Source of the DNA: a virus
Virus record (IMG/VR): IMGVR_UViG_3300045988_138996
Span: 1-64,000 of that record
DNA: 64,000 nt
Reading direction: 5' to 3' (one strand)
Shown: positions 2,166 through 58,336 of the stretch, piece after piece
Position numbering within the stretch: position 1 is the stretch's first letter
Layout of the letters: each line of letters begins with the position of its first letter
Notes under the pieces: model-generated
Databases searched by the model: none
What the model was told of the DNA's origin: nothing
The model's input: only the letters and a program-made list of their open reading frames with translations
Translations under genes and position numbers: made by a program

Positions 2166-2882
2166 ATGGCATATTCTGATAAAATCGAACAGGCTGCTGT
2201 GATTCTATTCGAAGAACGTGACGATCGTAATAAACTAAGTTTACGTATTCGCGATCTATGCAATATGGATTGGTCTACCGAAACGTTTACGTCATTTTCA
2301 GCTATGTGTGCTATCGAAATGGCTAAGAAGCATCATTGGGCTAAAGAATGGTCTAATATGAATTCATTACATATGGCACGTATCTGGTGTCTTTTAAATG
2401 CCGATGGCGATTCTTTGCGAGAACGTATCGATAATGCTGGCTTTACTGGTCAGAAGATTAACGAAATGATTATCGAAGGTGGCGGAACGCTAAGAAAACA
2501 AAAGTTTGATCAAGCTATTCGTTATAGCGAATGTTTTACCGATGCAGAAATTAAGCTTTTAGAAGCTATTAATAATAAGACTAAGAATAAACGTTTAGCA
2601 TCGATGCGTGAAAAGATTACGCCAGAACATCGTGAATTGGCAACGAAACATCGTTTAGAATCTGCTAAATATAATAAACGTAAAAAAGCTGCTAGTAAGA
2701 TCTTAAAAGAAACAGCTAAGACTGTTAAAAAAGTTAAGAAGTCAGCTCCACGATATGTTACGTATAAGTGTATCATTATCGATAGCAAGAAAAGTAAATT
2801 TGATAATATTGTCAATGCAATTAAATTAATTTTGAGTGGTAATTTTAAGGAAGTAAAGGAAGAAGTCCGTGAGTGTAATTAA
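2166..2882 (+). CDS. hypothetical protein (Lys-rich C-terminus)
   Basis: ORF track 2118..2882. That start lies inside the terminator, so I moved it to ATG 2166, which is preceded by GGAGG. Confidence 0.5.
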   Translation: MAYSDKIEQAAVILFEERDDRNKLSLRIRDLCNMDWSTETFTSFSAMCAIEMAKKHHWAKEWSNMNSLHMARIWCLLNADGDSLRERIDNAGFTGQKINEMIIEGGGTLRKQKFDQAIRYSECFTDAEIKLLEAINNKTKNKRLASMREKITPEHRELATKHRLESAKYNKRKKAASKILKETAKTVKKVKKSAPRYVTYKCIIIDSKKSKFDNIVNAIKLILSGNFKEVKEEVRECN

Positions 2883-3438
2883 AGATAATGACGGTGTTCG
2901 CATCGGTATTTTCGATAAAATGCTCGAAGAGCGAGTATTATTTATCGTAGGAGAGATTAATGATGAGTTGGCAAATTCTATCGTTGCCCATTTATTATAT
3001 CTTAATAGCAAAGATAGCCGTAAACCAATTACATTATATATTAATAGCCCTGGTGGTGTGATTACTTCTGGATTAGCTATTTATGATACGATGAAATTAG
3101 TTAAAGCACCAGTTCATACGATTGGTTATGGTATGTGTGCTAGTATGGCTAGTTTTTTATTAAGTATGGGCGATAAACGTAGTGTATTGCCTAATACATG
3201 TGTAATGATTCATCAGCCATTGGGTGGCGCACAAGGTCAACAAACTGAAATTGAAATCACTTATAAGCGAATTACGTCTCTTCGTGAAAAACTAGAAAAG
3301 ATGTATGCCGAAAAATCTAACGGCAAATCTTCTTATAAGCAAATTCACGAAGCTTGTGAACGCGATAACTATCTCGATGCTAAAGAAGCATTGGATATGG
3401 GTTTAGTCGATGAGATTATCGGAGGTGATGACGAATAA
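2869..3438 (+). CDS. clpP: ATP-dependent Clp protease proteolytic subunit ClpP
   Basis: ERVLFIVGEIND, SPGGVITSGLAIYDTM, catalytic Ser context GMCASMAS, IHQPLGG. Confidence 0.9.
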   Translation: MSVIKDNDGVRIGIFDKMLEERVLFIVGEINDELANSIVAHLLYLNSKDSRKPITLYINSPGGVITSGLAIYDTMKLVKAPVHTIGYGMCASMASFLLSMGDKRSVLPNTCVMIHQPLGGAQGQQTEIEITYKRITSLREKLEKMYAEKSNGKSSYKQIHEACERDNYLDAKEALDMGLVDEIIGGDDE

Positions 3439-3930
3439 TGAAATGTTCATTCTGTGGCAAAGATATCAACGATAATGAAAATAATCGAGTAACCTTTAGT
3501 TCTTCCGTAGACGAAAATATTTTCATCTGTCAAGATTGCGTTGAAAACATGAGTATTCAGTTAGTCGAAGATAATCCAGATTTAAATTTCGGTGTTAATT
3601 TAGAAGAAGATTTTGGTCTCGAAGATAAGCCAAAACCAAAGGTTAAAAAATCTAAATTATTGCCTTCACAAATTAAAGAATATTTAGATGAAAGTGTAAT
3701 TAATCAAGATTACGCTAAAAAGATTCTAAGTGTAGCTGTAACTAATCATACTAAACTGTTAGAATATAATGCTATGAAAAAAGAAAAAACTGGAGTCGAT
3801 GTAGAAAAAGGATGCGTCCTTATGATTGGCTCGAGTGGTGTTGGCAAAACGTTTTTAATTAAACAAATTTCTAAAAAATTAAAACGTCCATGTGTAATTG
3901 TCGATGCAAGTAGTCTCACCAAATCGGGGT
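3438..3930 (+). CDS. clpX: ClpX unfoldase, exon 1 (zinc-binding domain to Walker A)
   Basis: CSFCGK..CQDC zinc ribbon and Walker A GSSGVGKTFL. The frame breaks after ..DASSLTKSG, where ClpX continues G[YF]VGEDV. Confidence 0.85.
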
Positions 3931-4210
3931 TGACACAATAAGCCCTCTCTGATAAAAGTACAAATAAGTCAGAGTAATTAATGTGATCAAAATCGGTGAA
4001 GAGCCCATGTGGAAAATACCGAGGTAATCAAAAAATTTAAAAGATTTTTGACACCGTAACGCGTAGGAATTGAACCTTATAATATAAGAATAAAATATTC
4101 CCAAGAGTGATCGCCTCAGTTTGTATACTATTTTTACTGAGAAAATGTACGCTGAACTTGCAGGTGACTGTAAGAGCTATAGGATAAAAAGCCTATAGGG
4201 TAACAAATTG
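3931..4210 (+). ncRNA. ORF-less group I intron (280 nt) inside clpX
   Basis: The 5' exon ends in U (3930), which pairs as a G:U with G3942 in a P1 helix (exon GGGGU / intron GCCCU, 11-nt loop). The intron ends in G (4210). Splicing restores SG-F-VGEDVNSII..IVYIDEIDKI in frame. Confidence 0.7.
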
Positions 4211-5010
4211 TTGTTGGTGAAGACGTAAATAGTATTATTGGCAGACTGTATCGTGAAGCTGGTGAAGATATTTCTAAGGCTGAACAAGGTATTGTCTATA
4301 TCGACGAAATCGATAAGATTGCTGCTCGTGATCCTGAAAATGCAGGTGCTCAAGGTAGTGATATCGGTGGTCGTGATGTGCAGTACGAATTATTAAAACT
4401 TGTCGAAGGTGGCAAAGTAGCTATTAAGACAGGCGGTATGTTAGGTCAAGGTTCAACAGTCGAAATCGATACGACAAATATATTGTTTATTTGTGGCGGT
4501 GCATTTACCGGTATCGAAAAGAAAATTGCTGAACGTCTAAATAAATCTGTCGATAACGGTTTCGGCTTTACAAATGTAAAGTCCGAAAACGAAATTCAGG
4601 ATGAAATTACATATAATGGTTTAATCGATAATATCTTACCAGAAGATTTAAGTAATTTCGGTATTATTCCAGAATTATTAGGTCGATTACCAGTTATTTG
4701 TCCATTAAAAGAACTAAGTATCGAAGATTTAGAAAATATTTTAACGCAACCTAAACATGCTATATTTAAACAGTTAAAAGAGCTAGTAAGTATGTATGGT
4801 GTCGAATTAGAATTTGATAATGATACAATTCATACGATTGCTAAATTAGCTTATGAACGTAAGACTGGTGCCCGTGCGCTACGTAGTGTATGTGAAGCAT
4901 TAGTCGACGATAAGATTTTCGAAATCACTCCAAAGACTAAGAAAATTAAAATTACTAAGGAAGATGTCGAAAAGAAATTCGAATATTACCTAAAGAAGGA
5001 GGAAGAATAA
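4211..5010 (+). CDS. clpX: ClpX unfoldase, exon 2 (pore loop, Walker B, C-terminal domain)
   Basis: Hand translation from 4211 gives (F)VGEDVNSIIGRLYREAGEDISKAEQGIVYIDEIDKIA and runs in frame into track ORF 4378..5010 (GARALRS sensor motif). Confidence 0.85.
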
Positions 5011-5015
5011 TAAAG

Positions 5016-5879
5016 ATGTACGATTTAGTATCTCTTACTGAAGCAGCTTTAATTATAGCTATCGATAAATTAGCTAATAATGCTGATAAATTAACAGTCG
5101 ATGAAATTAGATTGCTTCATGAAATGTATATTGCTGGTACTATCGAAAAACTTCAACAAAAATTTAAAGCTGCTGAAAAAGATGCTCAAGAATTCTTAGC
5201 TAAAGAAGAAGCTAATGAAACTACTGCATCTGAAATCGTAACGGCTAAGGAAGAAGTTAAAGAAGAAAAACCTAAAACTAAACGTGGTCGTCCTAAAGCT
5301 AAAGCTAAAGAAGAAGATGTACCGGTAACAGATTTCGAAGGTAATGTATTGCCTCCAGAAAAATTAGCTAAAGGTAGTGAAGATAAAGTTCACGATGAAG
5401 AACCAGCTTTCGTACCCAGTAAAGCAGAAGTTAAACCTGAAGTCGTTGTCGAAGAAGCTTCTGCAGCTGAAAAAGCAACAAAATCTTTAGAGTTTAACGA
5501 AGCTCAATTAGATTGTTATGTATCTGAATTTAAACGTGAAGAAACATTCGAATCTAATCCTGAAGCAAAAGCTAAACTTACGCCTCAACGTAAGAAAATT
5601 AATGCTTTCGTAAAAGAAGCCGAAGGCAATAAAGCAGTATTACGTAAATATTTCGATGAAATTTTAGACGACGCCGATAAAGGTATGTCGTTTAAAGAAA
5701 TTACGCCTTTCTATGTCGATAATTTAGCTCATTACTTAACATTACGTGAAGAATTAGCACGTTATAATGAAGATCAAATTGTCGAAAAAATGAAAGAAAT
5801 TTCCGGCGGAGTATTACACGATATCTCTCAATTGAATCGGTATAATATCGAAGCCATTTTAACAGTTCTTAAAGCATAA
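5016..5879 (+). CDS. hypothetical Lys/Glu-rich protein
   Basis: ORF track; RBS GGAGGA upstream. Confidence 0.5.
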   Translation: MYDLVSLTEAALIIAIDKLANNADKLTVDEIRLLHEMYIAGTIEKLQQKFKAAEKDAQEFLAKEEANETTASEIVTAKEEVKEEKPKTKRGRPKAKAKEEDVPVTDFEGNVLPPEKLAKGSEDKVHDEEPAFVPSKAEVKPEVVVEEASAAEKATKSLEFNEAQLDCYVSEFKREETFESNPEAKAKLTPQRKKINAFVKEAEGNKAVLRKYFDEILDDADKGMSFKEITPFYVDNLAHYLTLREELARYNEDQIVEKMKEISGGVLHDISQLNRYNIEAILTVLKA

Positions 5880-5935
5880 TATATGCTTAAGATATATATG
5901 TAAATAATTTTATTTAAGAAAAGGAGACAATTAAC

Positions 5936-6370
5936 ATGTCCATGAACAAATTGATTTTACAAGGTCGTATTCCTACAAGTGAAAAGTTTAGATTCGACGT
6001 TCGTTTCGGCGATGGCGAAAATGAACGTTCTTTTGCTAATTTCCAAATGTCTGTACGTCGTAATTGGAAACCAAAAGACGAACAATACTATCCAGAAGAT
6101 ATCTTTAATGTAGTAGCTTATGGTCCTAATGCTGACGTTATTGGCAAACACGTAAAACGTGGCGAAGAATTCTTGATTGCTTGTCATTTGCAAAATAGAA
6201 CGTACGAAGACAAGAATGGTAATACCGTATATACTAACGATATTATTGTCGACGAATTCTATTTTGAGGATCATCGTTCTGGTGGTAATAGCGAATCTAA
6301 TTTCGATAATTTCAGCGATGCACCAGCTAATAGTGCGACTGAAGATGACGACGACGTTCTCGATATCTAA
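5936..6370 (+). CDS. ssb: single-stranded DNA-binding protein
   Basis: OB-fold SSB pattern (LILQGRI.., FNVVAYG..A..I.KHVKRGEEF..) and an acidic tail DDDDVLDI. Confidence 0.85.
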   Translation: MSMNKLILQGRIPTSEKFRFDVRFGDGENERSFANFQMSVRRNWKPKDEQYYPEDIFNVVAYGPNADVIGKHVKRGEEFLIACHLQNRTYEDKNGNTVYTNDIIVDEFYFEDHRSGGNSESNFDNFSDAPANSATEDDDDVLDI

Positions 6371-6405
6371 TAATTGTTAAATTAGCCATCGTATGTTATA
6401 ATTAT

Positions 6406-6440
6406 AGTGGGTATACACAGTGTATGCCCACTATTTTTAT
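6406..6440 (+). terminator. intrinsic terminator after ssb
   Basis: 12-bp stem AGTGGGTATACA / TGTATGCCCACT (one G:U), 3-nt loop, then ATTTTT. Confidence 0.65.
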
Positions 6441-6459
6441 TATATTTGTGAGGTGGCTC

Positions 6460-6840
6460 ATGGACCAATTAGAGCATATCGATTCCCAGATACAAGACTG
6501 GGAGAAATTTTTTAAATTAGATAATGAACTTAGAAGTAATCTAAATCAAATTTCAGAATATGTCGGAGAGAAACTTGCTAAAGGTAAATTTGGTGAACCT
6601 ATTCAAGTCGAATTCGACGACAAAATATTTCAATTTGTATTTAGAGTCGGTACTTCTGGTTTACGTGGTCGTGTCGATTCTTATATCGCTAGTAGTAAAT
6701 TGTTAATTAAACCTAGAGGATTTAAAGCACAAGTTGATTTTAATCAAGACGTATCATTAGCCGAGACGATTGGCGAAACGGCTCGAGGTATTTTGTATCG
6801 TTACTATGATTTAATCGATGATGAAGATCACGTTTATTAG
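6460..6840 (+). CDS. hypothetical protein
   Basis: ORF track 6424..6840. That start lies in the terminator; ATG 6460 is preceded by GAGGTGG. Confidence 0.45.
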   Translation: MDQLEHIDSQIQDWEKFFKLDNELRSNLNQISEYVGEKLAKGKFGEPIQVEFDDKIFQFVFRVGTSGLRGRVDSYIASSKLLIKPRGFKAQVDFNQDVSLAETIGETARGILYRYYDLIDDEDHVY

Positions 6841-7152
6841 AACGAGCTTATAAGTAGTTAATAATATTGACAAAACGATATATAAGTGGACATTTATATC
6901 TTATATACCGTTACTTGTAAGACCGTTTCTAGCCCTGGTGATTGTGTCTAACGAAAGTTATTTGCGAAATGAACCAAGTTATTGGAAAAAGTTAAAAACT
7001 CACCAGCAGATGTAATCTTCAGTCGGCTGCTCTGAGAATATTAAACCAAGAAACTCTGCTAATGTCCTGCAGAGATAACAGGAATAATATATGAACTTCC
7101 TGATGACATGGGCAAGAAGAAAAATTCTCCTTTATAAAGGAAGGTGGCAGAG
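6841..7152 (+). ncRNA. putative IscB omega-RNA (HEARO-type) region
   Basis: A 312-nt ORF-free block directly 5' of iscB, which is where IscB guide RNAs are encoded. Hairpins are visible, e.g. CTCTGC-N-GCAGAG at ~7055-7078, and it is richer in G+C than its flanks. Confidence 0.55.
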
Positions 7153-8391
7153 ATGCTTAAAAAATATTCGTTCGTACTAGATGCAGATGAAAAACAATTA
7201 GATCCTACAATCGAACAAAATACATGGCGACTTATTCGACAAGAAAAAGCATGCTTGATTTCTAAATTTCCTATGATCATTAAATTAAACAAAATCGTAA
7301 AAAATCCGAATCAAGATGAAATACGCTGCGGAATAGACGATGGCACAAACCACGTAGGATTGGCTCTTGTTCAAAAATGTCAGACAAGAAACAAAGTTTT
7401 ATTTAAAGGCGTTATAGAACAAAGAAAAGATGTAAAGCACCTTATAGATGTAAGAAGAAATTATCGGAGATATCATCGTTATCATAAACGCTACCGTCAG
7501 CAAAGATTTAATAATCGTGCTTCTTCTAAAAGAAGTGGACGATTACCGCCATCAATAAAACAACGGAAACAAGCAATAATTCGCGTAATCAATAGATTAT
7601 GTAAATGGATACGCATTAATAATTACTGGTTAGAAGATGTTAAAATAAATATTCGTGCTTTAACTGATGGATTTAAACCTTATAAATGGCAGTATCAAAA
7701 ACCAAATAGATTAGACAATAATTTAAGGCTTGCAGCTATTTATCGAGATAGTTGCCAATGCATTGAATGTGGCAAGAAAAATACTCGTTTTGAAGTACAT
7801 CATATAACACCTCAATCAAAAGGCGGTGCAGATACTATCAGCAATTTAGCAACCCTTTGTCCAGAATGTCATACTAAAACGTTCAGACAAGAAGAACAGT
7901 TTGCCGATCGATATTATTCTCTGATAGGATCTACTGGTAACATTAATGGATTAGCCGATGCACAAAGAGTTATGCAGGGAAAAACCTGGCTTAGAGAACA
8001 ATTAACGCAACATGGAAGATTGTTTTTAACAACGGGTGCAGATACAGCAAATAAACGCGATGATTGGAATATAGTTAAAACTCATTCTAACGATGCAATA
8101 TGTATAACGGATTTAGAACCAGAAAATATAGATATAGAAGAATGGATTATAAAGCCAATGCGCCGTAAAAGTAAAGCTCGAACTGAGCAAGTTTGTGGCT
8201 TTCGCCATCGAGATTTAGTAACTTACACATATCGAAATGGTGAAATACATATGGGATATGTAACGGCATTATATCCAGATAAAAATAAATTGAGCTTTCA
8301 ATCTCCAACAAAACGTTGCACAGGAGTAAATGCTTTAAAAACAAAGTTATTATGGAGATTTAACAAGATTTATTGGTTAAAATATTCGTAA
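7153..8391 (+). CDS. iscB: IscB RNA-guided nuclease (PLMP-like N-terminus, split RuvC, Arg-rich bridge helix, HNH)
   Basis: N-terminus [28 protein letters not shown]; Ruv[34 protein letters not shown]; Ruv[41 protein letters not shown]; Ruv[12 protein letters not shown]. Confidence 0.8.
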
Positions 8392-8401
8392 GTTTGTATA
8401 T

Positions 8402-9379
8402 ATGTCTATATTTTATAATGTTTTTAAAAGGAATTTTTATATGTTTAAAAATATGATTTGCGGTCTACGTAATTATTTTAAGAATACTTATAATAATAAC
8501 ATCGACGCACAATATTTAAGTATTTTAACTAATATTATTGCTAATGGTACTCGCAAAGAAAACCGTACAGATACTGCTGCGTATAGTATTCCGCATCAGC
8601 GTATGTCTTTTGATTTATCAAAAGAATTTCCATTATTAACCAGTAAATTTGTCGGTCTTAAAACAGCGACAAAAGAAATGTTATGGATTTGGCAAGATAA
8701 ATCTAACGACGTTAATGTATTAAATAAAAAATACGGCGTTAAAATTTGGAATGAATGGAAACGTACTGACGGTACTATCGGCAAAGCGTATGGGTATCAG
8801 TTAGCAAAACAATATAAGTATTTCGACGTCGATGCTAATAATGCTTTTAAGCTTAAAAAAGATGGCAAAATTAGTGATTATCGCGTCGGTAAAAATGGCG
8901 AAATCTACATGGATCAAGTCGATAAATTAATTTACGATTTACATTATAATCGTGATAGTCGACGTATGGTCGTTAGTTTGTGGAATGTCGAAGATCTTAA
9001 CGATATGGCATTGCAACCTTGTGCATTTTTAACAGAATGGAATGTTACCGATGGTAAATTACATTGTCTACTCAATCTCAGATCGAGCGACTGGTGCATT
9101 GGGAGCCCCTATAATATAGCACAATATGCAATGTTAGTATTGGTATTAGCTAAAACTAGTGGATTAAAACCTGGTAAGTTTACCGTTATGATTAACGACT
9201 GTCATGTATATGAAAATCATTTAAAAGGTGCTGTTCAACAATTAGCTAATAAAACATATACATTACCAAAAGTAACGTTAAAAGAAGGCTTCGACAGTTT
9301 TTATGAGTTCGATGCTGACTGTTTTGAAGTTAAAGATTATAAACATAGTGGCAAAATCGAATTTGAGGTTGCCGTATGA
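8402..9379 (+). CDS. thyA: thymidylate synthase ThyA
   Basis: NGTRKENRTDT, FPLLTSKFV, EMLWIWQ, LQPCAF (catalytic Cys), LRSSDW..GSPYNIAQY. Confidence 0.9.
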   Translation: MSIFYNVFKRNFYMFKNMICGLRNYFKNTYNNNIDAQYLSILTNIIANGTRKENRTDTAAYSIPHQRMSFDLSKEFPLLTSKFVGLKTATKEMLWIWQDKSNDVNVLNKKYGVKIWNEWKRTDGTIGKAYGYQLAKQYKYFDVDANNAFKLKKDGKISDYRVGKNGEIYMDQVDKLIYDLHYNRDSRRMVVSLWNVEDLNDMALQPCAFLTEWNVTDGKLHCLLNLRSSDWCIGSPYNIAQYAMLVLVLAKTSGLKPGKFTVMINDCHVYENHLKGAVQQLANKTYTLPKVTLKEGFDSFYEFDADCFEVKDYKHSGKIEFEVAV

Positions 9380-11188: not shown

Positions 11189-11481
11189 TGGACACAACTC
11201 ATTTAGAAACGTCTTTAGCTTCGTATGTCGGTATGTTCTCTCAGACATTACAGGGAACGAATACCGAAAAGAATCAAGCAATTATTAGCACTTTTTTAAA
11301 AGTAATTAATAATTTAATGAATGCCGAAGACGTACAAAAAGATGTTGCTATTAAACCTATAATTATGTTAGTATTAGAATACTTAGTAGACTATAATAAT
11401 TTGCTTGCTAAAAATGGTAAAGCCGATCAAGATGTAGCTACGGCAATTAAAGTACTTAATACTATTTCGAATAGACAATAG
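11188..11481 (+). CDS. hypothetical protein
   Basis: ORF track; start overlaps the upstream stop. Confidence 0.4.
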   Translation: MDTTHLETSLASYVGMFSQTLQGTNTEKNQAIISTFLKVINNLMNAEDVQKDVAIKPIIMLVLEYLVDYNNLLAKNGKADQDVATAIKVLNTISNRQ

Positions 11482-11490
11482 GAGGGTTAA

Positions 11491-14679: not shown

Positions 14680-15306
14680 ATGCTAACACTTAAAGAAATT
14701 TTTCAAACAAGAAATATTACTCAAGACTTTTTTAAGTCTAATAAGTATGTAAATCAAGGCGCATCATATTTAAGTATCGATGATGTTACTATGATTCTTA
14801 ATGAGTTGTTTAATGGCAACTGGTCTTTTGAAGTAGTACGTACTTGGTCAGAAACATATCTAGCTTATAATCAAGAAAAATCTGATAGTAAATTAGAAGA
14901 CACATATTTCTATGCCCACGGTCGTTTAACTATTAATACATTAAACGAAGACGGATCTCCTTTACAAATTATTAAAGAAGATATTGGCAGTAATTGTGTT
15001 CGTAAATCTGATAAAAATAACCGTATGGATTATTCTAGCGGGTATAAATCTGCTGTAAGTAGTGCTTTAAAAGGCTGTGCTGCTAATCTAAATATAGCTG
15101 TATTTAAAGATGATAATTTCGACAATATTAAAGAATTTATTAATAAGAAAAAACTTAAAGCTTATAAAGCTCAGGATGGCAAACGTTTTAGTGAAACTGT
15201 AACTAAGTTTGCAGAAAAAAATAATATTAGTCCGAAAGAAGCTTTAAACGATCGTAAATTCTTAAATATGCTAGTATTATACATCGAAAGAGAACACTTT
15301 GAATAA
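14680..15306 (+). CDS. Rad52/Sak-like single-strand annealing protein
   Basis: YLSIDDVTMILNELFNGNWSFEV and KSAVSSALKGCAANLNIA resemble the conserved Rad52-family blocks. Confidence 0.45.
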   Translation: MLTLKEIFQTRNITQDFFKSNKYVNQGASYLSIDDVTMILNELFNGNWSFEVVRTWSETYLAYNQEKSDSKLEDTYFYAHGRLTINTLNEDGSPLQIIKEDIGSNCVRKSDKNNRMDYSSGYKSAVSSALKGCAANLNIAVFKDDNFDNIKEFINKKKLKAYKAQDGKRFSETVTKFAEKNNISPKEALNDRKFLNMLVLYIEREHFE

Positions 15307-15349
15307 ATAGAATTATTAATAGAAATATTTATATAAGGAAACAATACTG

Positions 15350-16504
15350 TTGTTAAAAAGTTTTAAAACTGAAATTAATCCTACAAAAAAACAAATTATA
15401 AAAATAAATAAAACTATAGGAGCTTGCCGATATGTTTATAATTTTTATATTGCTTATAATAAAGAACTTTATGAAAACAATAAAGAATTTATGTCTGGAA
15501 AAAGTTTTAGTGTTTGGCTTAATAATGAATATATTCCAAACAATCCAGATAAAAAATGGATTAAAGAAGTATCATCTAAGTCTGTTAAAAAATCAATAGA
15601 AAATGGTAATACTGCTTTTTTAAACTTTTTTAAACATAAAAGTAATTTCCCTAAATTTAAAAAGAAAAATAATTCTAATATTAAAATGTATTTTGTTAAA
15701 GATAATAAGACTGATTGTCTATGCGAACGTCATAGAATTAAAGTTCCAACTTTAGGTTGGGTTCGTTTAAAAGAAAAAGGATATATTCCTATATCTAAAG
15801 ATGGTTTTATTGTTCGAAGCAGAACTATTTCATATAAAGCTGGAAGATATTACATATCTGTTTTAATTGATATGCCAGAACAAAATACTCAAATCAATAA
15901 TAATCCTGGCATTGGTATAGACTTAGGATTAAAAGAATTTGTTATTTGTTCAGATAATTCTATTTTTCAAAATATAAATAAAACAAATAATATCAGAAAA
16001 GTAGAAAAGAAATTAAGACGAGAACAAAGAAAATTATCTCGTAAAATTATTTTAATAGAGAAAGGGGAACCTGCTCAAAATAATTTTGTAAAACAAAAGT
16101 TAAAAGTACAAAAGCTTTATCAAAGATTAACTAACATTAGAATAGATTATTTAAATAAAACAATAAATAGTATAGTGAAAACTAAGCCATCTTTTATTGT
16201 TATTGAAGATTTAAATATATCTGATATGATGAAAAATAAACATCTTTCTAAAGCTGTAGCACAACAAAAATTCTTTGAATTTAAAACTAAATTAATTAGT
16301 AAATGTAAAGAATATAACATTGAATTAAGAATTGTAGATAGATTTTATCCGTCATCTAAACTTTGTCATAATTGTGGTCATATTAAAAAAGATTTAAAAC
16401 TATCTGATAGAATTTATATTTGTTCTGAATGTGGTTACACTGAAGACAGAGATATTAATGCAAGTCTTAATTTAAGAGATGCTAAAACTTATACAATTAT
16501 ATAA
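15350..16504 (+). CDS. tnpB: TnpB RNA-guided nuclease (IS605 OrfB family)
   Basis: N-terminus LKSFKTEINPTKKQ; RuvC D (GIGIDLGLKEF), E (IVIEDLNISDM), zinc finger CHNCG..CSECG, RuvC-III EDRDINASLNL. Confidence 0.85.
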   Translation: MLKSFKTEINPTKKQIIKINKTIGACRYVYNFYIAYNKELYENNKEFMSGKSFSVWLNNEYIPNNPDKKWIKEVSSKSVKKSIENGNTAFLNFFKHKSNFPKFKKKNNSNIKMYFVKDNKTDCLCERHRIKVPTLGWVRLKEKGYIPISKDGFIVRSRTISYKAGRYYISVLIDMPEQNTQINNNPGIGIDLGLKEFVICSDNSIFQNINKTNNIRKVEKKLRREQRKLSRKIILIEKGEPAQNNFVKQKLKVQKLYQRLTNIRIDYLNKTINSIVKTKPSFIVIEDLNISDMMKNKHLSKAVAQQKFFEFKTKLISKCKEYNIELRIVDRFYPSSKLCHNCGHIKKDLKLSDRIYICSECGYTEDRDINASLNLRDAKTYTII

Positions 16505-16680
16505 TAAATATAATGTATAAGTATGTACCGAAGGCTTATTCGGGAATTTACGACTGTGGAGTATACAAGAACTTGTGAGTAGCATATTTAATTTTATTAA
16601 ATTGCAAAAGCATATACGTTGAAGCAGTAAGTAAAAACTGTGAAGTTTTACAAGTCTCATTATAGATATGTGTCTATAAT
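16505..16680 (+). ncRNA. putative TnpB omega/reRNA scaffold and element right end (may begin inside the tnpB 3' end)
   Basis: ORF-free tail with hairpins CCGAA-GGCTTA-TTCGG and ATTATAGA-N6-TCTATAAT, in the expected position for a TnpB guide RNA. Confidence 0.4.
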
Positions 16681-16896
16681 TTGAGTAGCAGAAAGTGGCG
16701 AATAATGATTATTTCAGATCCAGAGGATAAAGTATATTTTAAATGTCCTCGATGCGGGAATCGACGATTCGAAAAGGTCGAGTTATTTGAGTTCAAAATG
16801 TTCCCACGACAAAATGAATATACTGCATTAAAAGATGCGGATGTTTATCGTTGTCATAACTGTAAACATGTCGTAACGAAAGATCAAGTCCGTTAA
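16681..16896 (+). CDS. small zinc-ribbon protein
   Basis: CPRCGN..CHNC pairs; an alternative ATG start lies at 16705. Confidence 0.5.
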   Translation: MSSRKWRIMIISDPEDKVYFKCPRCGNRRFEKVELFEFKMFPRQNEYTALKDADVYRCHNCKHVVTKDQVR

Positions 16897-55817: not shown

Positions 55818-56969
55818 ATGATTGTAATTAAAAGAGACGGTCGCAAGGTTGATTTTGATAAATCTAAGATTATTGTTGCTATAAATAAGGCACAACATTC
55901 TTTACTTAAAGATAATGAAAAAATAGCTAATGCTATTGCAGAAGAAATAACGCAAGAAGCTCTTATGCTTCAAGAAATCGATATTAAACGTATCGAAAAA
56001 ATGGTATTCGATCTTTTGGTTAAACATAAACAAAAAGACGTAGCTCGTTCTTATGAAGGTTATCGTGCTGTACGAGAATATAGAAGAATTACTAATACTT
56101 CTGATAAAGATATTTTAGAATTAATTGCTGGTAGTAATAAAGAAACTATCAATGAGAATTCTAATAAGGATGCTTATATTATTCCGACTCAACGTGATTT
56201 AATGGCTGGTGAAATTTCTAAAGATATTGCTAGAAGAAAATTGATCCCGATTGATATTATGGAAGCGCACGATAAAGGAGTGCTGCATTTACATGATATC
56301 GACTATCAATTACAACCAATGAATAATTGTGGTCTTCCAGATTTTAAAGATATGCTTTCTAATGGTACTGTTATCAATAAGAAAAAAATCGAACCTCCAA
56401 AATCTTTTCAAGTAGCATGTACAGTACTCAGCCAGCTGTTCGCCGTCGTAGCAAGTTCTCAATATGGTGGCCAAACAGCAAATCATATTGAAGAAATATT
56501 AGCTCCATATTTAAGAAAGTCTAAACAAAAATATGAGAAAATATTTCAAAATGAAAAAAATAAAGAAACGTTAGTTGATTTAATGGTCAAGAAAGAATTA
56601 AAAGACGGAATTCAGACGTTGCAATATCAGATAAACACATTGATGACTTGCAATGGCCAAAGCCCTTTTCTGACTTTATTTATGCACTTTTTACCAGGTT
56701 CAGAGTACGAGGAAGAATGTGCTATGATCACAGAAGAAATTCTTCGTCAAAGAATTGAAGGAATGAAAGGTCCGGACGGTGTTACGATTAGTCCAACATT
56801 CCCTAAACTAGTTTATGCATTAGATGAACATAATGCTAAACCAGGTAGTAAATATTATTATTTAACTAAACTAGCTGCAGAATGTACAGCTAAAAGAATG
56901 ATGCCTGATTATGTATCGGCTAAAATTATGCGACAAGTAAAAGATAGCCAAGTATTTGGCCCAATGGGT
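55818..56969 (+). CDS. nrdD: anaerobic ribonucleoside-triphosphate reductase NrdD, exon 1
   Basis: ATP-cone MIVIKRDGRKVDFDKSKI; NrdD body; ends ..QVFGPMG, just before the conserved CRSFL. Confidence 0.9.
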
Positions 56970-57201
56970 TAACACATAACGGCCCATGTAAAACGATGTG
57001 AACTGTATCATAAAACAGGTGTCCCTTATGGGGCTAACGGTGAATCCTTAATGGCAATACCGTGCTAAGCGTATTATTACGACAGTGTAGAGACTATTGG
57101 TGATGAATGTAGCCAAGTAGAGTAGAGACGTGCTACTCGATGCGCATCGCATTTATTATTTAAATAAATGAAGAGATAGTCCAGCTTAATTAATTAAGTT
57201 G
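56970..57201 (+). ncRNA. ORF-less group I intron 1 in nrdD (232 nt)
   Basis: P1: exon AUGGGU pairs with intron GCCCAU (56982-87), with a G:U at the splice site. R/S-like cores GTAGAGACTAT (57086-96) and AGATAGTCC (57172-80). The intron ends in G57201. Confidence 0.8.
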
Positions 57202-58078
57202 TGTAGAAGTTTCCTATCAGTTTGGTATGATAAAGAAAATAATCCTATTATAGATGGACGCTTTAATAAAGGTGTTGTAACATTAAATCTCCCTCAATGT
57301 GCTATTGTTGCAGATGGAGATATTAACAAGTTTTGGAAATTATTAGATGAGCGTTTGGAATTATGTCATAAAGCTCTTAAGTTCAAAACGGAAAGACTAC
57401 TCGGTGTAAAAGCTTCTGTTGCTCCAACATTATGGATGTATGGTGCTTATGCTAGAAAAAATGCTGATGATATATTAGATGATTTAATGGTTGGTGGCTA
57501 TTCTACATTAAGTTTAGGCTATATTGGTTTATATGAAACTATTAAATTATTAACAGGCGAATCTAATACTAAACATCAAAATTTAGCATTAAAAATTACT
57601 CGATATATGGCAGATAAATGTGAAGAGTGGAATAATCAAGAAAATTATGGTTATTCTTTGTATAGCACTCCTGCCGAAAGTTTGTGCTATAGATTTGCTA
57701 AATTAGATAAAGAACAATTCGGTGAAATTAAAGATGTTACTGATAAAGGCTATTATACTAACTCGCATCACGTTGATGTGAGAGAAAATATTAACATATT
57801 TGATAAGATAGATTTTGAAGCGCCTTTCCAAGAAAATGCTACTGGTGGATTTATTGGTTATGGCGAAATTCCTAATATGACGAATAACATTGAAGCATTA
57901 GAAACTATTATTCAATATATTTATGACCATGCTATGTATTGGGAATTTAATACTAAACTTGACCATTGTATGAAATGTGGCTTTGATGGCGAAATTTTGC
58001 CTGATGGTCATGGTGATTGGATTTGTCCTAAATGCGGAAACCAAGATCATAATACATTAAAAGTTATTCGAAGAACGT
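57202..58078 (+). CDS. nrdD: NrdD, exon 2
   Basis: Begins CRSFLSVWYD..; contains the C-terminal zinc site CMKCG..CPKCG; ends ..VIRRT plus the first nt of the Cys codon. Confidence 0.9.
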
Positions 58079-58336
58079 AGACATACATGCGTTCTATAAA
58101 CAACCTATATGCGGGAAGTCCCTTAGAGCTTTAATTACTAAGCTATTGACAAAAGAAAATAGTGGCAAGAATAATTACCTTGGTATAGTAAAAAGATTAA
58201 AGATTGGGTAATCCGCAGGGAAGCACCGTATAGGTGAACCCTCAGAGACTACCATGGTTGGCAATTTATTGTATGGTATAGTCCAGGCCGTCTACATATG
58301 TAGAGTTAAAGTACTAGGAAACTAGCGGTATTGCGG
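58079..58336 (+). ncRNA. ORF-less group I intron 2 in nrdD (258 nt)
   Basis: P1: exon AGAACGU pairs perfectly with intron GCGTTCT (58089-95), with a G:U at the splice site. R/S-like cores TCAGAGACTAC (58251-61) and ATAGTCC (58287-93). The intron ends in G58336. Confidence 0.8.

Follow-up and report, generated by a model that had tools for sequence, protein, structure and literature searches.

An IscB element of a large phage genome, with a predicted guide RNA directed at the empty sites of its relatives

Why should a large phage carry, amid genes of replication and nucleotide metabolism, the gene of an RNA-guided nuclease? The question is raised by a 64,000-nucleotide stretch of viral DNA (IMG/VR record IMGVR_UViG_3300045988_138996, positions 1 to 64,000; the window, below), where an iscB gene, preceded by a region predicted to code for its omega RNA, stands just before thyA. 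IscB is the nuclease from which Cas9 descends. To our knowledge the persistence of iscB in nature is still debated, and the only role demonstrated for it is the restoration of an excised transposon. The reading that we favour, with a probability of roughly 0.7, is that positions 6841-8428 make a non-autonomous IscB/omega-RNA element (OMEGA family, ISC type) that homes into the genomes of co-infecting phages.

The element, its protein and its RNA

Relatives of the phage lineage were retrieved by a search with the 126-aa open reading frame (ORF) that precedes the element. Sixteen IMG/VR contigs (L030-L045, up to 236 kb), with flanks 79-94% identical to those of the window (92-94% in 15 of the 16), all join window position 6840 straight to 8429-8438. 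The same place, site A, is also empty in a seventeenth, L050, and it is filled in the window and in L048, always with the same conserved neighbours. In the empty site, the stop codon of the 126-aa ORF abuts the ribosome-binding site of thyA. Taking a hyphen to mark each junction, L033 reads ...GATCACGTATATTAG-GAGTTTTTATATGTTT, and the filled window reads ...GATCACGTTTATTAG-AACGAG...TTTTTAAAAG-GAATTTTTATATGTTT. Because the empty alleles join 6840 directly to about 8429, the element must be 6841-8428; the earlier note, which had looked forward to such empty sites in related phages, closed the unit too soon, with the end of the ORF at 8391. It had also wedged the unit between ssb and thyA, which is right on the thyA side, while the 126-aa ORF separates it from ssb. 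In L008 and L028, whose IscB is 86-88% identical, nucleotide similarity to the window is confined to 6838/6842-8424 (86% identity) and the flanks are unrelated. We are thus dealing with a clean insertion between an upstream stop codon and the Shine-Dalgarno sequence of thyA, co-oriented with the operon, where the ribosome-binding site of thyA is restored by the element's own 3' end. The element consists of a 312-nt omega-RNA scaffold, iscB and a 37-nt tail, as follows.

6841..8428, +: mobile element in full, 1588 bp, missing in 17 contigs of relatives
6841-7152, +: predicted omega-RNA scaffold, 312 nt, from element start to iscB start
6841..6930, +: guide-adaptor domain, enlarged and branched, from single-sequence folds of 20 homologues
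6931..7141, +: omega-RNA core scaffold, with nexus stem GCC/GGC, central stem, pseudoknot hairpin and terminal hairpin, from HEARO and RNAalifold
7153..8391, +: iscB coding sequence, 412 aa, from Pfam, NCBIfam and PDB matches, conserved start context and the ratio of nonsynonymous to synonymous substitution rates (dN/dS)
8392..8428, +: tail of the element, with ...TTTTTAAAAG at its end, restoring the Shine-Dalgarno sequence of thyA in its 5' half

The ORF that codes for the nuclease (7144..8391, +) matches the Pfam families RRXRR (1.6e-44) and HNH (7.6e-15) and passes the cut-off of the NCBIfam equivalog NF040563, guided_IscB (272 bits against 175). It comprises a split RuvC domain with an arginine-rich bridge helix and an inserted HNH domain. 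Aligned to OgeuIscB (7xht), it keeps all the catalytic residues: GIDDG holds the RuvC-I aspartate, LEDV the RuvC-II glutamate, EVHHITP the pair of HNH histidines and THSNDA the RuvC-III H..D, the references being D61, E193, H247, H340 and D343 of OgeuIscB, with roles according to PMC9640706. An intact IscB with its full catalytic set, as claimed from the letters alone, is borne out, and so are the motifs GIDDG, HNH and HSNDA of the proposed layout; the PLMP-like N-terminus is less faithful, since this region does align (from profile position 2 onward) but reads QLDPT where OgeuIscB has PLMPT and HfmIscB PLAPT. HfmIscB (9k2z) is the closest solved structure (E 2.7e-167, aligned residues 7-413); in that chain the HNH motif has an alanine in place of a histidine (EVAHI), which one would expect of a construct made catalytically dead. 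The C-terminal domain that interacts with the target-adjacent motif (residues 322-413) aligns end to end with HfmIscB, and is not alignable to OgeuIscB by sequence. An in-frame GTG at 7144 is an alternative start, yet the real one is probably ATG 7153, because the context AGARATG is conserved in all relatives, with a Shine-Dalgarno sequence, GGAAGG, ahead of it. Among nine copies dN/dS is 0.04-0.13: iscB is under strong purifying selection. By these sequence comparisons the ORF is an IscB of the RNA-guided OMEGA family, for which DNA cleavage is predicted. The protein cluster to which it belongs (P0004) also contains truncated versions of 77-371 aa, on 223-233 kb contigs of sister phages, and copies 88% identical to that of the window are labelled 'NinG recombination protein' or 'HNH endonuclease' in public records.

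An omega RNA of the HEARO type, of about 310 nt, had been proposed 5' of the ORF. The sole meaningful Rfam match in this block, HEARO (RF02033) at 6917-7127 (+), has the right place and orientation (E 9.4e-5), but at 34.0 bits it stays below the gathering score of 83; the Staphylococcus phage copies reach 32-33 bits. Because the match fails Rfam's own rule, the RNA was tested independently by a family alignment of 22 upstream regions, the sample comprising 22 IMG/VR phage contigs with relatives of IscB (54-88% identity) and three Staphylococcus phage copies. RNAalifold yields 38 pairs, with compensatory changes in 26. On this structure 98.8% of the cells are paired, 0/500 column shuffles reach any of five measures, and when the 3' partners are slid by 1-3 columns pairing falls to 27-40%. 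The scaffold is 87-95% identical between copies in which synonymous divergence (dS) is 0.3-1.4; the 16 nt upstream of it, unlike the scaffold, are unrelated between insertion sites. Conservation and covariation argue that the block codes for a structured RNA of the omega type that goes with IscB, conserved in this family and distant from Rfam's seed.

The guide-adaptor domain of this RNA appears to be delimited by the element's own beginning. In 17 of the 20 homologues folded separately, and with differing sequences, the domain is closed by the 3-4 nt with which the element opens; in the window AACG (6841-6844) is predicted to pair with CGTT (6924-6927), where most copies have GACU...GGUU. A second, covarying stem joins CTTATAAGTA (6847-6856) to TACTTGTAAG (6912-6921), around a variable inner hairpin (6876-6910 in the window), and in the Staphylococcus phage copies the whole domain has shrunk to a simple hairpin. 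Downstream, the nexus stem corresponds to a GCC/GGC pair that never varies in the alignment (window 6932-6934), and the terminal hairpin of the core overlaps the ribosome-binding site of iscB. As for transcription, TTGACA at 6867-6872 was considered as part of a sigma-70 promoter and discarded, as it lacks an acceptable -10 box and is conserved only in the closest clade. A scan upstream of the guide gave no dedicated promoter, and no more sites than shuffled sequences.

Guide, target and movement between sites

In OgeuIscB the guide lies directly 5' of the guide-adaptor hairpin, which the nexus stem follows (PMC9640706). Since scaffold and element begin together, at 6841, the guide is predicted to be the last 16 nt of the left flank, that is, the end of the 126-aa ORF, TAG stop included. 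For IscB borne by insertion sequences, the guide is taken from the flank that borders the omega RNA, with the target-adjacent motif at the opposite end of the element (PMC10055086). As guide and motif thus flank opposite ends, an empty site should be a match to the guide followed by the motif. The sequences concerned are these.

6825..6840, +: predicted omega-RNA guide, or protospacer, AGATCACGTTTATTAG, in the left flank, with the TAG stop
8429..8434, +: first bases of the right flank, candidate position of the target-adjacent motif, GAATTT in the window
11466..11485, +: empty target site B, TTCGAATAGACAATAG-GAGG, between a 97-aa ORF and recA
4983..5002, +: empty target site C, ATATTACCTAAAGAAG-GAGG, in front of a 287-aa ORF

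The predicted guide matches the empty alleles of site A at 16/16 positions in six contigs (L030, L032, L038-L041) and with 1-2 mismatches in the rest; most often the mismatch is a synonymous replacement of GTT by GTA, seven bases in from the 3' end. The 64-kb window has no other match to it with three mismatches or fewer. At the position of 8429, the empty alleles read GAGTTT, GAGCTA, AGGTTT, AGGTGT, AGGCTT or GGTGTT; in the window, the first bases of the scaffold, AACGAG, come right after the protospacer, in the place of a G-rich motif. Another candidate was the stretch of 16 nt that borders the conserved core on its 5' side (CGTTACTTGTAAGACC and its Staphylococcus equivalents). It finds no match in empty sites, is near-identical between loci and forms one strand, the 3' one, of the stem of the guide adaptor; it was rejected for these reasons.

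Both alleles are at hand for eight sites, and all eight read NAG-G(A/G/T)G(G/A), which is the Shine-Dalgarno sequence of the next gene. Their filled/empty pairs display no target duplication, and the junctions, next to this short motif, are clean to within 0-3 nt. Because the element always ends with ...AAG, ...TAG or similar, the ribosome-binding site is rebuilt. We infer that the target-adjacent motif is G-rich and Shine-Dalgarno-like, about GAGG, with a register uncertain by one base. Such a rule, NAG-GAGG ahead of a gene, would make all copies co-oriented with the downstream gene, with a guide that read-through could transcribe, and could explain both harmless insertion and guide expression. 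The earlier note had linked the placement of the gene to the nucleotide-metabolism cluster where phage homing endonucleases gather; no such link is apparent, as the boundaries occupied are of many kinds, always at a Shine-Dalgarno sequence. An insertion model of the serine-recombinase type, with a 'GG core', was tried and is not supported: the elements of the window, L028, L048 and L055 start with AAC, and there is no GG at the left junction. Finally, the end of the left flank often recurs in the element's final 2-7 nt (7 nt in L008, 5 nt in L050), which could be a short duplication left by a staggered cut, or chance in A/G-rich sequence.

Within the same phage lineage the element occupies three boundaries: site A (window, L048), site B (L049/L050) and site C (L055). 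The window's site B reads TTCGAATAGACAATAG-GAGGGT, a 16/16 match to the guide of L050, the contig in which site A is empty; between the window's site C and the guide of L055 there are 2 mismatches. A second phage lineage provides a reciprocal filled/empty pair (L017 against L022/L024/L025). Three Staphylococcus phages have the element at one locus each, all different; at every one of these loci, relatives with flanks 94-99.6% identical hold an empty allele. The claim of RNA-guided homing made at the outset gains from this pattern, in which the left-flank guide fits empty alleles and the element stands at further boundaries in sibling phages, and none of the outcomes that the earlier note had named as refuting it was observed; the cut itself is a prediction from sequence.

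Some of these copies have a history of their own. In phage VL10 the element lies inside the first codons of a gene for a resolvase, to which its 3' end lends an N-terminus in recoded form. The change from ACAAATAGTAAAAAAAAAGGT to ACAAATTCGAAGAAAAAAGGT places four guide mismatches beside a retained motif; compared with phage Remus (L005 1411-1440), the recoding in VL10 (L003 5262-5300) is synonymous, MTNSKKKGD to MLNLTNSKKKGD. By analogy, this resembles the target-site immunisation of protein homing endonucleases. In phage Golestan101-M (L002 5274-6048), 24 nt past the right junction, a PhoH-like gene is present as an allele devoid of nucleotide similarity to that of its relatives, and looks as if carried in with the element; an ORF annotated 'transposase' (6667-7776) is found 1.4 kb downstream. 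Contig L054 has two IscB elements (2194-3776 and 4307-4597) with differing guides, about 0.5 kb apart (2.1 kb between their starts), with one 111-aa gene between them. Upstream of the first, the neighbouring gene lies on the opposite strand, so that read-through cannot supply the guide of this copy.

Homing and its alternatives

How would such an element travel? Read-through transcription from the upstream gene would give an RNA in which the last 16 nt of the flank (AGAUCACGUUUAUUAG) act as guide, followed by the 312-nt scaffold, and IscB would bind this molecule. Upon co-infection with an insertion-free relative, the complex would recognise the uninterrupted junction, a guide match next to the motif of about GAGG, and the HNH and RuvC domains would cut both strands there. 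The break may then be repaired from the element-bearing genome by RecA, the Rad52-like protein and SSB of the phage, so that the element is copied, as in homing or a gene drive, possibly with co-conversion of neighbouring markers. The carrier genome would be spared, since next to its protospacer the scaffold (AAC...) stands in place of the motif. Occasional jumps to new NAG-GAGG gene boundaries would re-specify the guide automatically.

Much of this has parallels. OgeuIscB and GstIscB (from ISGst5) share the order of domains: an N-terminal region (the place of PLMP), RuvC-I, Arg-rich bridge helix, RuvC-II, HNH, RuvC-III and a C-terminal domain for the target-adjacent motif. OMEGA IscB of the ISC and IS200-IS605 groups likewise have the omega RNA directly 5' of the gene, a guide from the flank and a motif at the far end. 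The absence of an adjacent tnpA is also common to most iscB loci, only about 1.5% having one nearby (PMC10055086). Over the aligned core, identity to OgeuIscB is about 25% or less. The element of the window differs from those of OgeuIscB and GstIscB in its branched guide-adaptor of roughly 90 nt, in an iscB-distal end without clear hairpin and in its residence in large phage genomes of the virulent type. Its G-rich, Shine-Dalgarno-like putative motif contrasts with the AT-rich TTCAT of GstIscB and with NWRRNA of OgeuIscB. Nearer are the copies of Staphylococcus Herelleviridae phages (JDF86, Golestan101-M, VL10 and the CIFT_MFB_MRSA series): their IscB is 50-55% identical, their scaffold alignable, with a simple adaptor hairpin, and they form insertions of roughly 1.54 kb with empty alleles in close relatives. 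HEARO is merely listed among the features of the CIFT phages (PMC13346280), and in the literature searched we found no function proposed for these elements.

With free-standing homing endonuclease genes as known from phages (Seg/Mob of T4, intronless homing), the element shares presence or absence between conserved neighbours, location in the replication/nucleotide module and the expectation of spread by co-infection with co-conversion of flanks. It departs from Seg/Mob in that its target would be recognised by a 16-nt guide, re-specified by insertion, and not by a protein-DNA interface, and in that self-immunity would come from interruption of the site and not from sequence differences. The same logic, where an RNA-guided cut of the element-free homologue leads to copying, is that of the IS605 TnpB gene drive demonstrated on plasmids (PMC11870625) and of 'transposon non-restorative homing' (PMC13565253). 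That review, of 2026, treats the copying of IscB into homologous phages or plasmids as theoretical and cites only the TnpB plasmid drive; homing of IscB between phage genomes was not found in the literature searched. Family (IscB/OMEGA) and logic (flank guide, far-end motif, cut of the empty site) are therefore already published, and what is distinctive here is the branched adaptor domain and the Shine-Dalgarno-like target. The locus makes a natural test bed, with an intact nuclease and RNA, seventeen empty alleles holding the predicted protospacer and siblings at other boundaries. Guide-dependent homing between phage genomes is testable, since site B is empty in the window and an exact match to a sibling's guide. 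On the practical side, the clade offers a small protein (412 aa) with a near relative of solved structure.

Several observations weigh against homing as we propose it. The copies of the window and L048 are as diverged as their flanks (87-97% identity per 200 nt), with no sign of recent homing between them. Recent co-conversion around the element was considered and dismissed, the identity profile having no block of elevated identity, and because of this shared divergence the insertion at site A must be old, not freshly homed. The perfect guide matches are limited to 6/17 empty alleles, and the commonest mismatch falls inside the presumed seed. The motif is itself deduced, and the distinction of self from non-self would hang on very few positions (GAG against GAC/AAC). 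The HEARO score is far under the curated cut-off. Lastly, a Y1 transposase, TnpA, was found neither in the element, nor beside the roughly 50 copies inspected, nor among 20 further ORFs of the window, a search that did not extend to its other ORFs, the rest of the phage genome or the host. Of the two ends, that of the omega RNA folds strongly (z -2.5), and at the iscB-distal one no convincing subterminal hairpin was seen (z 0.0 and 0.55 in the window, -0.4 to -1.7 in relatives), so that neither TnpA nor such a hairpin offers a route to new sites. A bolder proposal would supply one: phage IscB elements in general might be self-retargeting RNA-guided gene drives, with the core of the Shine-Dalgarno sequence as motif, that colonise new sites through the cut made by IscB, without TnpA. 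We offer it tentatively, as something rather doubtful. If true, the Shine-Dalgarno rule would put the elements at gene boundaries in sense orientation, with a guide transcribed by the host operon and a ribosome-binding site mended by the end of the element; each jump would create a new drive, and the drives of sibling phages would be directed against one another.

Might the cut matter more than the copy? The element could be mainly a weapon between phages, destroying or excluding the markers of insertion-free relatives to the profit of the carrier and its thyA/ssb/recA module, with copying as a by-product. We consider this unlikely, even if the target is present only in related phages, sibling elements are aimed at one another's empty sites, its lasting presence at site A, under purifying selection, agrees with an advantage to the carrier, and free-standing homing endonucleases of phages act likewise (PMC13565253). 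With flanks 92-94% identical, repair from the carrier should be efficient rather than lethal; for the rest, the molecular steps are those of homing, and sequence data do not separate the two.

A second alternative does away with transfer between phages. The element would be an ordinary passenger of the IS200/IS605 type, moved only by a TnpA that the host or another element provides in trans, and IscB would only restore it, after excision, on sister genomes. Clean junctions without obvious target duplication, beside a short motif, and the many insertion sites would fit, as would related copies that stand alone in bacterial chromosomes and the fact that about 98% of iscB genes lack an adjacent tnpA and are classed as IS200/IS605 all the same (PMC10055086). 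Yet neither the transposase, in the places inspected, nor the subterminal hairpin at the iscB-distal end was seen, and that diverged phages share both element and site, with reciprocal empty sites that match the guides, is what spread between genomes predicts; we give this explanation only a small chance. Least probable, and by far, is an intact-looking relic that cuts nothing, its RNA deprived of a usable guide or its nuclease devoted to another role: the sub-threshold HEARO score, the truncated copies of 77-371 aa in sister phages and a promoter scan equal to shuffles would suit it, but not a dN/dS of 0.04-0.13, a scaffold conserved far above synonymous sites, intact catalytic residues and the repeated recent colonisation of new sites, which indicates an active family.

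Phage setting and other insertions

The window is phage-like, with nearly all genes on the + strand, a five-tRNA cluster at 50.9-51.5 kb and a replication/recombination/nucleotide module that holds SSB, RecA and Rad52-like genes as well as the IscB element. A megablast of the locus against deposited phages returned no match, and the window has no close relative among them; the lineage is represented in metagenomes only, by genomes of roughly 230 kb. Related IscB copies stand alone in the chromosomes of Selenomonadaceae (78% identity), Clostridia and Bacilli, which hints, by sequence kinship, at the range of hosts. From the closest cellular copies, the host of this lineage is probably one of the Selenomonadaceae or Veillonellaceae. 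The immediate neighbours of the element are the following.

5936-6370: ssb
6461..6840, +: upstream ORF, 126 aa, without Pfam family, also called as a 126-aa gene in L048/L050; its TAG stop is the last bases before the element
8441: ATG, real start of thyA

Directly after ssb, a 14-bp perfect hairpin followed by a T-run (6404-6434), probably the ssb terminator, overlaps the annotated start of the 126-aa ORF, a position that speaks for ATG 6461 as its real start.

Other insertions are scattered in this phage and its relatives. A second OMEGA element spans window positions 15295-16689. It comprises a TnpB ORF (15350-16504, +; Pfam OrfB_IS605, Cas12f1-like TNB and HTH_OrfB_IS605) and a RAGATH-18 RNA (16553-16630, +; 75.6 bits for a gathering score of 44.9), an RNA type linked to TnpB of the IS607 family. 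This 1.4-kb block is missing from L050, and is therefore also an insertion polymorphism. The gene of the anaerobic ribonucleotide reductase, nrdD (55818-58080), is called as two ORFs that cover positions 1-250 and 264-539 of the NRDD profile; because the gap between them (56973-57198) has a sub-threshold group I intron match (57013-57200, 21.3 bits, E 0.0023), a small intron is likely. A ClpX-like ATPase gene is split into two ORFs (3438-3941, 4378-5010) by about 289 bp at 3924-4212, an insert that is relatively GC-rich (0.41), has no Rfam match and is missing from L050, where the gene is a single 431-aa ORF. Finally, thyA itself harbours, in two relatives, insertions absent from the window: about 1.9 kb in L032 (locus 4889-6786; insertion point at window 8904/8909) and about 1.1 kb in L042 (locus 5051-6177; window 9066/9095). 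These are further mobile elements, possibly of the intron or endonuclease type.

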